NCBI GenBank assembly: GCA_022482735.1
Contig: JAKVOO010000001.1
Coordinates: forward strand, 55,699 to 119,698
Direction of reading: 5' to 3'
DNA: 64,000 bases
Source of the DNA: Bacilli bacterium
Lineage (GTDB): Bacteria > Bacillota_I > Bacilli_A > RFN20 > CAG-826
The translations under genes were made by a program, and so were the position numbers. Each line of letters opens with the position of its first letter. The stretch's first letter is position 1. The notes under the pieces are model-generated. The model made no database searches. It was not told the DNA's origin and worked only from the letters and a program-made list of their open reading frames with translations. This document shows positions 27,315 to 35,519 of the stretch, one piece after another.

Positions 27315-27390
27315 GGCCCGGTAGCTCAGCTGGTAGAGCAACGGACTGAAAATCCGTGTGTCGCCGGTTCAACCCCGGCTTGGGCCACCA
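27315..27390 (+). tRNA. tRNA-Phe (GAA), integration target of the downstream island
   Basis: GGCCCGGTAGCTCAGCTGGTAGAGCAACGGACTGAAAATCCGTGTGTCGCCGGTTCAACCCCGGCTTGGGCCACCA, with anticodon loop CTGAAAA. Confidence 0.92.
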
Positions 27391-27450
27391 TCTAAACCTA
27401 GGAACCATCGAAGAAATTCGGTGGTTTTCTTTTTTCCAAAAACATAAAAA
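27376..27450 (+). repeat. attL-like direct repeat (last 15 nt of tRNA-Phe plus about 60 nt including the tRNA terminator hairpin)
   Basis: Near-identical to 34560-34636. Weaker similarity continues to 27553 / 34736. Confidence 0.85.
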
Positions 27451-27493
27451 AGGCGATTTTGGGCTAAATCGCCAAATGTCCGTGTGTCGGTTT

Positions 27494-27553
27494 TTATTTA
27501 ACTTTTTTCATAAACTTGTCATATCGCTTCCTTGATTCAATCAAATAAACATG
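27494..27553 (-). pseudogene. tyrosine integrase remnant (last 19 codons only)
   Basis: The reverse strand reads HVYLIESRKRYDKFMKKVK*. The C-terminus of the intact integrase at 34677..35519 reads HIDLIETRRRYDKFIHKKK*. Confidence 0.75.
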
Positions 27554-27644
27554 AATAATTATCTTTGCCGCATAAACTGAAGGATGATTAGATATCTATA
27601 TAGTTATCAAACAAAGAATCATACATCACTGCCCATATTTTGTT

Positions 27645-27826
27645 GTTCTTAATATTTGCTTGGTGATATACTTAAAATAATACTAAGGCACACTCAAATA
27701 ATTTAGTGCTTTGAAACATAACGGGGGTTATGAGCAATGAAAAAATCAAAAGCTAAAACGATTGGACCGAAATCAGTTTTAGTTGCGACTAAAGGAGAAG
27801 TCGTTTTAACTTCCTTTGGCCAAAAG
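27645..27826 (+). repeat. duplicate of the cas13d promoter / 5' UTR / first ~30 codons
   Basis: Aligns with 31229-31419, from atattttgttgttcttaatatttgcttgg... through ...acttcctttggc. The encoded peptide is MKKSKAKTIGPKSVLVATKGEVVLTSFGQK, versus MKKSKAKAVGLKSVLVTTKGEVLVTSFGKK in cas13d. Confidence 0.9.
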
Positions 27827-28459
27827 AGTATTAAGTCAGTGGCCCTGGCCTTGGAGACCGCATCAGAAATCATCTTGGCTGCGCTATCTATGGTTTTGAT
27901 TGTTGCTTTTGCTTTCAAGCCGATGCTTTCTTCGAAAAGAGTATTTTTTTCGACAACATCCAGCGGCTCGCCGTCCTTGGCAGTATCGGAAGCTATTGAA
28001 TATTCCTCTTCTGGTGAAAACGCTGCCTCTACGGTGGACGTGATGGTTGCCAACTTATATTACGGAACCAATTACGACGGAACGGTCGGGAAACTGAACC
28101 CCGGATACGATTTTCGGGCAATTACAATCTCCCTAGAGGAGTTGAACGGAAACGAAATTCTTCTTTCGTATCCAGTCGCCATCAATGAATACGGGAAAAT
28201 GGAGAACGGCATCCTTCGCGAGAATGTCCACAAAGTCATTAGGGATGATTATTCCCTAATCTATTCCTTTGACCTAAATGAAATTTTCCAAAACGACTAC
28301 GATGGGGTTATTTCCTTCGCCGTGAAATACGAGGAATCACGCTCGGATGTCATTTATTCGTTTGGGAAACGATTCTATTTTGATTTTTCGAAGGTTGGGG
28401 ATGTTGCAAAACTATCTGATTTTAAATGGGATTATTTCAGCGATGGCTACGCTGACTGA
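27737..28459 (+). CDS. chimeric ORF: cas13d N-terminal 30 codons fused to unrelated sequence (240 aa)
   Basis: The start and RBS are inherited from the duplicated cas13d 5' end. The remainder has no Cas13d similarity. The middle part (about 27835-28050) has an equally open antisense frame, so it is uncertain whether this ORF codes for anything. Confidence 0.4.
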   Translation: MKKSKAKTIGPKSVLVATKGEVVLTSFGQKSIKSVALALETASEIILAALSMVLIVAFAFKPMLSSKRVFFSTTSSGSPSLAVSEAIEYSSSGENAASTVDVMVANLYYGTNYDGTVGKLNPGYDFRAITISLEELNGNEILLSYPVAINEYGKMENGILRENVHKVIRDDYSLIYSFDLNEIFQNDYDGVISFAVKYEESRSDVIYSFGKRFYFDFSKVGDVAKLSDFKWDYFSDGYAD

Positions 28460-33987: not shown

Positions 33988-33999
33988 CCTCATTTTGAG

Positions 34000-34299
34000 G
34001 TGCAACACCTGTGTAAAATTACATAGGTCTAAAACTGTAGACCATATTTTTTGTCAATGGCTTTGGTGCAACACCTGTGTAAAATTACATAGGTCTAAAA
34101 CGGCATTAGTTACTTCACTAGGAATATCGATGTGCAACACCTGTGTAAAATTACATAGGTCTAAAACTGGGCGATTAGTTTTTCGATTTTGCTTTCAGTG
34201 CAACACCTGTGTAAAATTACATAGGTCTAAAACTTGTGCATTTTTTATTTTTACAGAACTTGCGTGCAACACCTGTGTAAAATTACATAGGTCTAAAAC
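34000..34299 (+). CRISPR. CRISPR array: 5 identical 36-nt repeats and 4 unique 30-nt spacers (plus a possible 5th spacer and degenerate repeat at 34300-34364)
   Basis: The repeat GTGCAACACCTGTGTAAAATTACATAGGTCTAAAAC occurs at 34000, 34066, 34132, 34198 and 34264. It has an internal 7-bp hairpin (ACCTGTG/CATAGGT) and a 3' GGTCTAAAAC, like the recalled Cas13d repeat GAACTACACCCGTGCAAAAATGCAGGGGTCTAAAAC. Confidence 0.95.
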
Positions 34300-34559
34300 T
34301 CCGTACATAGAGCCACCAGTATGTATTAGAAAGAGTTTTGTTGAATGATTTATAGGTGTTAGTCAAATTTGTATGCAAAAAAATCAGCATAGTTTGTCAT
34401 GCTGAAATAAAAACTTAAATTATAAGTACTAGGCGACTAAATTTAGTTCTTTCAATAGAGTTAAATTATTTATTGCCTTTAACTAATTTTTCACCAAGAA
34501 AATGATGACAAATTAAGCCGAAAGTTAAACTATCTTTAAAAAATAGTTCGTCTAAGAAT

Positions 34560-34636
34560 CGGCTTGGGCCACCATCTAAACCTAGGAACCATCGAAGAAA
34601 TTCGGTGGTTTTCTTTTTTTCTAAAGCATAAAAAAA
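34560..34636 (+). repeat. attR-like direct repeat (partial tRNA-Phe 3' end plus downstream sequence)
   Basis: cggcttgggccaccatctaaacctaggaaccatcgaagaaattcggtggttttctttttt is identical to 27376-27435, and the similarity continues beyond it. Confidence 0.85.
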
Positions 34637-34676
34637 GCCCTATTTTTTAGAGGGCCATATAATCCGTGTGTCGGTT

Positions 34677-35519
34677 TTATTTCTTCTTATGAATAAATTT
34701 ATCGTATCTTCTTCTTGTTTCAATTAAATCTATATGAACATATCGCTTTGTGGTTTCAACCGATGTATGGCCAAGAACACGAGAGATCATAATTAAATCA
34801 GCTCCATTAGAATAAAGATTTGTTGTAAGCGTATGCCTAAGCATATGAGGAGATAATTTTTCGATTTTAAAACGCTTTCTCATTCGACCAAATATACATT
34901 CAACATTATTAACTGTTAACTGTTTTCCACTAGGTGTGCTAAACAAGAACTTATTCATTTTCTTTTGCTTTTTAACATACTGCTTTAACAAACGTGAAGT
35001 TCCAACTGTGTAATAAACATATCGCTCATGTTTTGTCTTTGTATGAACTAAGTAAACATATCTTTCATCAAAATTAATATCTTCTATTCGTATGTTTATT
35101 ACTTCACTTAACCTTGCTCCAGTGTCAACAAAAATCATAATTAGAACTTTGCTTCGCAAAGTTATTTTTGGAAATACATTACTAAACAATTCAGTTTGTT
35201 GCTTCTGATCTAAATAACCAAATGTTACAAAAGGAATACGCATATTCCTTATATTCTCAACACCAGGATGAACATCACTAAAACGACATGCTCTTTTAAT
35301 AAATCCTACTCGATGATTTAAAGTATTAGGACTAATACCACGTTCCCGTTCGGAAAATATATAATTGGTAACAAATTCTTTTGTTAAAGCACTAGAATCA
35401 ATGTTACCAAAAGTATTAATCAAGGTCTTTTTAATTGATAAATAGAACTTATATGTTCCGGGAGAATTATATAGTTTTTGTTCAATCAAATATAAATCAA
35501 ACAATTTATTAAGTTTCAT
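34677..35519 (-). CDS. int: tyrosine recombinase / phage-type integrase (280 aa)
   Basis: Catalytic signature ARLSEV (Arg), HMLRHT (His-x-x-Arg) and LGHTSVETTKRYVH (His...Tyr). The gene lies next to the partial tRNA-Phe repeat. Confidence 0.85.
   Translation of the reverse strand: MKLNKLFDLYLIEQKLYNSPGTYKFYLSIKKTLINTFGNIDSSALTKEFVTNYIFSERERGISPNTLNHRVGFIKRACRFSDVHPGVENIRNMRIPFVTFGYLDQKQQTELFSNVFPKITLRSKVLIMIFVDTGARLSEVINIRIEDINFDERYVYLVHTKTKHERYVYYTVGTSRLLKQYVKKQKKMNKFLFSTPSGKQLTVNNVECIFGRMRKRFKIEKLSPHMLRHTLTTNLYSNGADLIMISRVLGHTSVETTKRYVHIDLIETRRRYDKFIHKKK

Follow-up and report, generated by a model that had tools for sequence, protein, structure and literature searches.

A type VI-D CRISPR-Cas locus as probable cargo of an integrase-less, att-flanked cassette at a tRNA-Phe gene of an uncultured Bacilli bacterium

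A gene for the effector Cas13d and its CRISPR array were found in a 64,000-nt stretch of DNA from an uncultured Bacilli bacterium (GenBank assembly GCA_022482735.1, contig JAKVOO010000001.1, positions 55,699 to 119,698; this whole stretch is called the window below). Judged from its sequence, this RNA-targeting CRISPR module lies inside a small cassette with a copy of the tRNA-Phe 3' end at each boundary. We consider it likely that the cas13d locus is the cargo of an att-flanked cassette which resembles a cis-mobilisable element (CIME), has no integrase of its own, and stands in tandem with a unit carrying the matching integrase at the tRNA-Phe 3' end. On its inner sides the cassette has a P' arm, which includes the tRNA terminator and the relic of an integrase gene, and a P arm about 53 nt long. 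The two cores, the arms on either side of them (P'1, P1 and P'2) and the other features are listed in Table 1.

Direct repeat and junctions at the tRNA-Phe 3' end

The integration target is the final gene of a tRNA-Met/tRNA-Asp/tRNA-Phe cluster. The initial annotation of this DNA had reported that the end of tRNA-Phe and the sequence behind it recur downstream, with about 60 identical nucleotides at the start, and this was borne out: the repeat finder returned 27376-27454 and 34560-34638 at 95% identity, beginning with 60 nt without a mismatch (27376-27435 = 34560-34619). With indels, the two copies stay alignable until about 27546 and 34729 (81.7% identity, ~170 nt), and beyond the core they hold the tRNA-operon terminator, followed by a second terminator on the minus strand. 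In P'1 these are a hairpin at 27401-27428 and the terminator of the integrase at 27452-27473; the differences between P'1 and P'2 in the integrase terminator hairpin are compensatory. The direct repeat of the tRNA 3' end is therefore present at both boundaries of the unit, at the cores given in Table 1, and no third att site (core or P arm, with up to three mismatches) was found within the 64-kb window.

It is highly improbable that the repeat arose in assembly, or by chance or duplication without any connection to site-specific recombination. Some short-read assemblies do break in or near it (L005 stops at 34590). However, the same arrangement was found again in no fewer than five independent assemblies (JGI 3300051653, 3300044556, 3300045591 and 3300045595; Logan SRR35197851), one of them a 1.48-Mb contig, and it is therefore not an artefact of assembly; mis-assembly, the objection foreseen in the initial annotation, was not upheld. 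A chance feature is also contradicted by the 15-nt end of tRNA-Phe, CGGCTTGGGCCACCA, which has two exact copies in the 64 kb and reached two or more matches in 0 of 100 shuffled sequences, by the compensatory hairpin changes between the copies and by the junctions seen in other genomes.

Seven such junctions were aligned, and the only sequence common to all of them is the 21-nt core CGGCTTGGGCCACCATCTAAA, made up of 15 nt of the tRNA-Phe T-stem, acceptor and CCA plus 6 nt. Around it, left arms (tRNA, P0, P1) and right arms (P'1, P'2, X) were seen in five combinations: tRNA-core-P'1 in the window, P1-core-P'2 in the window and L017, tRNA-core-P'2 in L006 and L041, P0-core-P'1 in L017 and L034, and P1-core-X in L034. 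Such shuffling of arms about a constant short core has the form expected of a product of site-specific recombination; 21 nt is too short for efficient homologous recombination.

Assemblies of the same chromosome from other samples were retrieved with the flanking proteins (rubrerythrin and the S component of an energy-coupling factor (ECF) transporter) and with the integrase. Four configurations occur at the site. The window type is found in L001/L007/L016, L002/L019/L010 and L003/L021. In L006/L015 (a 386-kb contig) and L041 (a 795-kb contig), whose flanks are 98.5-99.2% identical to the window, tRNA-Phe runs directly into copy 2 of the repeat with its intact integrase; 27391-34574 is gone exactly at the repeat. 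The presence or absence of the 7.2-kb unit is therefore polymorphic, with breakpoints at the repeats, and the search for an empty site in related strains, which had been proposed as a check, gave a positive answer. In L017, the end of another element (element 0), not tRNA-Phe, lies upstream of the cassette, with a P arm of ~53 nt and then the core. In L008/L009, tRNA-Phe is followed by a prophage (L008:10878-15346) and homology to the window ends at 27392. This prophage encodes a cI-like repressor, a replisome organiser and a serine recombinase of 505 aa, whose open reading frame (ORF) extends into the 3' end of the tRNA; the tRNA-Phe gene is thus a hotspot for two unrelated types of recombinase.

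A more distant metagenome-assembled genome (MAG), L034 (GCA_035326105.1), shares a common flank that is just 74-88% identical to the window. Its order is element 0, then P0-core-P'1 with an integrase relic, cas13d with a 10-repeat array, P1 with a core, and X. Here the cassette is minimal, with a length of 3.9 kb and without the captured operon described below. Its cas13d is 88-100% identical to that of the window (93% overall), well above the identity of the flank, which argues for horizontal movement of cas13d between lineages. The X region (L034:13577-19260), unrelated to the window, carries a 204-aa resolvase, an S-adenosylmethionine synthetase fragment and an S8 peptidase; it could be native DNA downstream of tRNA-Phe or another inserted element.

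Table 1. Coordinates of the features discussed (window positions unless a contig is named)
Feature	Position	Strand	Basis or remark
tRNA-Phe(GAA), integration target	27315..27390	+	ARAGORN; Rfam RF00005, 65.9 bits
Left core (attL)	27376..27396	+	CGGCTTGGGCCACCATCTAAA; seven-junction alignment, exact repeat search
P'1 arm	27397..27493	+	terminator scan, alignments, tRNA relic
Tyrosine integrase relic, last 20 codons and stop	27494..27556	-	translation, BLASTP
Second cas13d promoter and first 30 codons	27633..27826	+	NF038189 matches residues 2-29
ORF240, fusion ORF	27737..28459	+	BLASTP against L039
Captured 834-codon gene, secreted protein, HEYGH motif	28476..30980	+	pseudogene in window
cas13d promoter region and gene	31229..33987	+	NF038189
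CRISPR array	34000..34299	+	five identical 36-nt repeats GTGCAACACCTGTGTAAAATTACATAGGTCTAAAAC, four 30-nt spacers
P1 arm, cassette right end	34507..34559	+	junction alignment; single copy in window
Right core, hybrid attP-like site (P1-core-P'2)	34560..34580	+	repeat search, junction alignment
P'2 arm	34581..34676	+	layout as in P'1; alignments, terminator scan
Intact Xer-like tyrosine integrase, 280 aa	34677..35519	-	PF00589, E 3e-36
Remnant beside integrase	35725..36300	-	frameshifted homologue of element 0 138-aa gene, with GC-rich piece
Mini-elements of integrase relatives	L120:1-2906; L122:763-3735; L032:8243-11686		flanking tRNA-Leu repeats

The Cas13d locus and the composite 7.2-kb unit

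The cas13d gene proper (31330-33987) encodes 885 aa and matches the NF038189 equivalog over all profile positions (1-882 of 882) with 645 bits (cut-off 150; E 2e-193). Its product has two HEPN RxxxxH motifs, RQDAMH (residue 240) and RNQIAH (residue 788). The array begins 13 nt past the stop codon in repeat-then-spacer orientation. A full-length Cas13d, two HEPN motifs and an adjoining array of 36-nt repeats identify the locus as type VI-D. The genes cas1 and cas2 and a WYL protein, which are frequent in this subtype and not obligatory, are absent: Cas1 and Cas2 of the nearest type VI-D loci gave no tblastn match in the 64-kb window or in the 22.6-kb L034 locus, and a Pfam search of the cassette ORFs returned no WYL and no other domain. 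The nearest Cas13d relatives outside its own cluster are 38% identical and belong to cas13d-cas1-cas2 loci. The exact Cas13d sequence of the window had no record in the gene-position index; in NCBI records, its cluster and that of the integrase both come from uncultured 'Bacilli bacterium' MAGs. The flanking chromosome has a GC content of ~35-43%, compared with 24-34% for cas13d, 28-31% for the integrase gene and 42-46% for the captured operon.

The arrays of the window (4 spacers), L017 (5; 6962-7328) and L034 (9; 12671-13300) do not share a single spacer. As the arrays turn over completely while the cassette has no cas1 or cas2, the spacers were most likely acquired via adaptation proteins encoded elsewhere. 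Two of the L034 spacers could be assigned. Spacer 7 matches the L008 prophage at 27/30 positions, antisense to the replisome-organiser mRNA, and spacer 6 matches a remnant beside the integrase (30/30 in L021; 22/23 in the window at 35846-35868), with L034's own two copies of the spacer 6 target diverged at the protospacer. The four window spacers had no meaningful match in IMG/VR, nor did the window and L034 arrays in GenBank phages. Separately, a stretch of 24 nt within the rubrerythrin gene (26515-26538) resembles the CRISPR repeat in its 3' part (…GGGTCTAAAAC) at 83% identity, which is probably due to chance.

The window version of the unit is larger than the minimal cassette, and the promoter and first codons of cas13d occur in it once more, ahead of the complete gene. 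This copy (27633-27826) shares 89.6% identity with 31227-31419 and 99.1% with a separate module of L034. It supplies the first 30 codons of ORF240, whose residues 54-213 align with a 192-aa lipoprotein-like gene product of L039 (30% identity, E 8e-18). In L039 (7414-10535) the lipoprotein-like gene precedes a homologue of the 834-codon gene that follows ORF240 in the window. Since L039 carries homologues of both genes in tandem, ORF240 and the 834-codon gene are a captured two-gene operon fused to the promoter and 30 codons of cas13d.

The 834-codon gene is intact in L017, has one stop in L007 and is interrupted by two nonsense codons in the window (28509-28511 and 28812-28814), forming a series of progressive decay. 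Homologues of the 834-aa protein exist at 31-77% identity, and the 692/834-aa protein had no match in Pfam, NCBIfam, PHROG or PDB. The initial annotation had listed a cas13d duplication, a metalloprotease pseudogene, cas13d and its array as the content of the 7.2 kb; all of these are present, with the qualification that the HExxH motif is the sole basis of the name 'metalloprotease'.

The separate L034 module lies ~5.7 kb past the cassette and is 99.1% identical to window positions 27430-28478. It contains ORF240 and the 5' end of cas13d as well as the integrase relic and a portion of P'1, and the 5' end of a destroyed integrase gene is fused to it. Because L034 holds such a module ('M') apart from its cassette, the 7.2-kb unit of the window is a fusion of an M module with a cas13d module ('C'), joined at 31228/31229. 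The minimal cassette consists of integrase relic, cas13d and array (3.9 kb) and in the window has been enlarged to 7.2 kb by module fusion, with the second cas13d promoter and 30 codons driving a captured operon that is now decaying. The earlier proposal of a small mobile island is therefore supported in a refined form, as a composite of a 3.9-kb cassette and an operon module.

The integrase, its family and the adjoining remnant

Each copy of the repeat is followed by the 3' end of an integrase gene, in agreement with the initial annotation; the relic behind the first copy retains 20 codons, one more than had been counted. Its C-terminus, ...IHVYLIESRKRYDKFMKKVK before the stop, is identical to the end of the intact integrase at 12/20 residues (60%; E 5e-7). 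The intact 280-aa protein shares the catalytic residues R136, K161, H225, R228, H251 and Y260 with all eight relatives in an alignment, so that a predicted tyrosine recombinase with a complete catalytic set adjoins the att site. The ORF is uninterrupted in 5/5 strains and is oriented convergently with the 3' end of the tRNA. The protein scores under the XerA, XerC and XerD cut-offs and has no recognisable arm-binding N-terminal domain.

The protein database holds one cluster of this integrase at 96% identity, followed by a next relative at 45%; among GTDB representative genomes, the integrase query returned only relatives of up to 37% identity and no empty site. A 43% relative is found in L031, which encodes Rep_trans and has a 30-nt terminal overlap indicating a circular element of ~9.6 kb. 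Directly after the integrase stop codon, L031 has an attP consisting of a 46-nt tRNA-Phe 3' half, from the anticodon loop to CCA (L031:3880-3930), and the same tRNA-Phe fragment opens the far end of L029 (41% relative). The 37-38% relatives belong to helix-turn-helix (HTH)-integrase mini-elements of 2.85 kb and 3.3 kb, flanked by direct repeats of 122 nt and 175 nt that include 61 nt of the tRNA-Leu(UAA) 3' part. Apart from the integrase, these contain only a cI-like HTH gene and a pair of small ORFs, one of them ribbon-helix-helix. In L032, five 12-nt iterons (TGTATATCAC..) lie immediately upstream of the integrase gene. With the tRNA-Phe att sequences of L031 and L029 and the tRNA-Leu sequences of the mini-elements (L032, L120, L122), the family is seen to target tRNA 3' parts. 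Recombinases of up to 34% identity from a metagenome scan were not beside tRNA genes, and are uninformative on this integrase family.

In both P' arms the integrase stop codon adjoins a relic of the tRNA-Phe anticodon arm and variable region, AATCCGTGTGTCG, which measures 11 nt in copy 1 (27479-27491) and 13 nt in copy 2 (34661-34675). These relics hint at an ancestral attP of the anticodon-loop type. Their position beside the stop codon, together with the 46-nt attP of L031, suggests that the att site may have drifted from the anticodon loop toward the T-stem/acceptor region.

To the right of the integrase lies the remnant, whose sequence recurs inverted, at 84% identity, inside the phage-like element 0 of L034. 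Its matches in L034 are at 2118-2658 and 21038-21570, with a direct-orientation copy near the ECF S-component gene. The GC-rich piece of the remnant carries the protospacer of L034 spacer 6; at 35740-35905 it matched no Rfam family in a permissive search and its folding result (z = 0.47) does not support a structured RNA. Breaks in several short-read assemblies fall at 35756-35845. As the remnant is also present in L034 at flank-level divergence, the integrase-bearing unit looks old and anchored. No remnants of Rep_trans or of other genes of the relatives' elements were found between 35520 and 36900. Conserved chromosomal genes resume right of the island array with a tetrahydrofolate riboswitch (36928-37027, 65 bits) upstream of the ECF-transporter S component (37069-37629), probably a folate transporter.

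Movement of the cassette and its place among known systems

The junction combinations, the cassettes in other contexts and the use of tRNA genes by the integrase family support the earlier proposal of successive integrations at the tRNA-Phe 3' end. A circular P1-core-P'1 cassette could have integrated into the junction between tRNA-Phe and the integrase unit or, alternatively, an integrase-bearing element could have integrated into the distal att site of the cassette; either route would give the order tRNA, cassette, hybrid att, integrase. Excision would be simple in mechanism: if the resident integrase recombined the two cores (attL with the hybrid att), the products would be a circle and the configuration of L006, and the cassette may still be mobilisable in this way. 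Transfer between cells would probably occur by co-excision with a neighbouring phage-like element.

Several points weigh against this account. No P1-core-P'1 junction of an excised circle was found, the P arm plus core having 0 matches in metagenome contigs, a collection made up of cassette-less contigs only, and the loss in L006 could equally have occurred by RecA-dependent deletion between the 60-nt identical repeats. Neither a recombination directionality factor nor a transfer gene is visible in the cassette. The ratio of non-synonymous to synonymous substitution rates of the integrase (0.4-0.6) was obtained from only 13-18 differences and is weak evidence of constraint. In addition, the integrase-bearing unit has no distal P arm and core anywhere in the 64 kb. 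Because its distal att site is undetectable in the window, this unit is a remnant rather than a complete island; of the tandem att/integrase modules that had been described, the second, intact integrase is confirmed, and the second module as a complete unit is not.

Some of these points would also fit a cassette that is a fixed chromosomal relic, with other elements inserted at its cores and cassette-less strains produced by RecA deletion. The perfect 60-nt repeat suffices for RecA, the copy-2-type junction of L006 fits either mechanism, no circle was observed in the scanned, cassette-less contigs, and integration of element 0 at attL would yield P0-core-P'1 without any movement of the cassette. 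However, the divergence of the flanks (74-88%) compared with cas13d (93%) and one module (99.1%) requires horizontal movement, and the right end of the cassette is joined to both P'2 and X via the 21-nt core, which is too short for efficient RecA recombination. We therefore regard a fixed relic as quite unlikely.

Another possibility, to which we give little credence, is that the cassette is terminal cargo of element 0 and mobile only within that composite, the neighbouring integrase being an unrelated leftover. The cassette does lie directly behind element 0 in L017 and L034, where this otherwise unrelated element is closed by a ~53-nt arm nearly identical to P1, and both assigned L034 spacers match other mobile elements of the same site (the L008 prophage and the L021 remnant). 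Element 0 itself showed no BLAST-level similarity to the Rep_trans elements. Against this possibility, the window and four other assemblies have the cassette straight after tRNA-Phe without element 0, a complete core separates element 0 from the cassette, and the P' arm and integrase relic of the cassette are homologous (82%) to the neighbouring integrase module. Carriage by element 0 is also compatible with cis-mobilisation, and differs from the explanation preferred here, a CIME-like cassette with a matching integrase in tandem, only in the integrase that acts.

Tandem accretion of CIMEs with integrative and conjugative elements (ICEs) or integrative and mobilisable elements (IMEs) is known from tRNA genes and other 3' gene ends, for example ICESt1/CIME of Streptococcus thermophilus (PMC5704250, section 2.3), and CIMEs are defined as decayed ICEs or IMEs (PMC5704250). 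In the window, likewise, the cassette keeps attL and attR, with both cores and both arms, while its integrase is reduced to a relic. It stands in tandem with a unit of the same integrase specificity, with a hybrid att between them, homologous P'1 and P'2 arms and the intact integrase after P'2; the site is a tRNA 3' end and strains vary in the presence of the cassette. It differs in that the relatives of the integrase reside in small Rep_trans or HTH-integrase elements and not in ICEs, that the integrase unit has no detectable distal att, and that the cargo is a CRISPR effector with its array. No relaxase or conjugation genes were found in the cassette, the neighbouring unit or the relatives, and this also weighs against the comparison, given the decayed ICE or IME origin of CIMEs. 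Because no conjugation or mobilisation ancestry is visible, we use 'CIME-like' rather than CIME.

As in other elements that integrate into tRNA genes, the window elements restore the 3' part of the tRNA, supply a terminator and have a direct repeat at the far boundary. The enzyme of the window is different, however, in being short (280 aa) and Xer-like. Williams reportedly distinguished, in 2002, sublocation classes of tRNA-targeting tyrosine integrases; the window core lies in the T-stem/acceptor, whereas the block in the 43% relative L031 starts in the anticodon loop.

Islands, prophages and plasmids carry CRISPR-Cas systems (type I-F on Vibrio islands is one example), and viruses contain mini-arrays. 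The cassette is similar to these in that defence cargo is borne on an integrative element, with some spacers aimed at competing mobile elements. It is different in carrying a type VI-D effector and in its 3.9-kb vehicle, which has no functions of its own beyond the att sites. The window repeat closely resembles that of EsCas13d. Like the canonical type VI-D loci EsCas13d, RspCas13d and RfxCas13d (Yan et al. 2018, PMC5935466), the locus has a full-length Cas13d with two HEPN motifs, 36-nt repeats ending in ...GGTCTAAAAC and 30-nt spacers. Unlike them, it has no cas1, cas2 or WYL in the cassette or the 64 kb, it is enclosed by att sites, and its host is an uncultured Bacilli MAG, not Ruminococcus or Eubacterium.

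Carriage of CRISPR-Cas on islands and CIME accretion are both well established. In the literature searched, no paper linking Cas13d to an integrase-bounded island was found. The present locus is a sequence-level case of minimal type VI-D spread, in which a 3.9-kb cassette without adaptation genes would use a tRNA hotspot and an integrase supplied in trans. The locus is also a source of a compact, divergent Cas13d of 885 aa, whose nearest relative outside the cluster is 38% identical, and of a small putative tRNA-Phe-specific integrase/att pair.

A more speculative and rather doubtful extension is that the 3.9-kb cassette is a dedicated hitchhiking defence module, used in the competition of mobile elements for the tRNA-Phe site. 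Such a cassette would have shed everything except att sites, effector and array, would ride in cis with elements that share its att sites, and would depend on an adaptation module of the host or of a partner for the renewal of its spacers. The L034 spacers match the serine-recombinase prophage of the same site and a variant of the phage-like element adjacent to the integrase, while L034's own copies of the target have diverged. If true, a cassette that acts as a hitchhiker in conflicts between mobile elements at a tRNA-Phe hotspot would be of greater interest. The finding bears on why many Cas13d loci are 'orphan' units of effector plus array, on how defence genes build up at integration hotspots, and on whether it is the host or the accompanying mobile elements that benefit from such cassettes.

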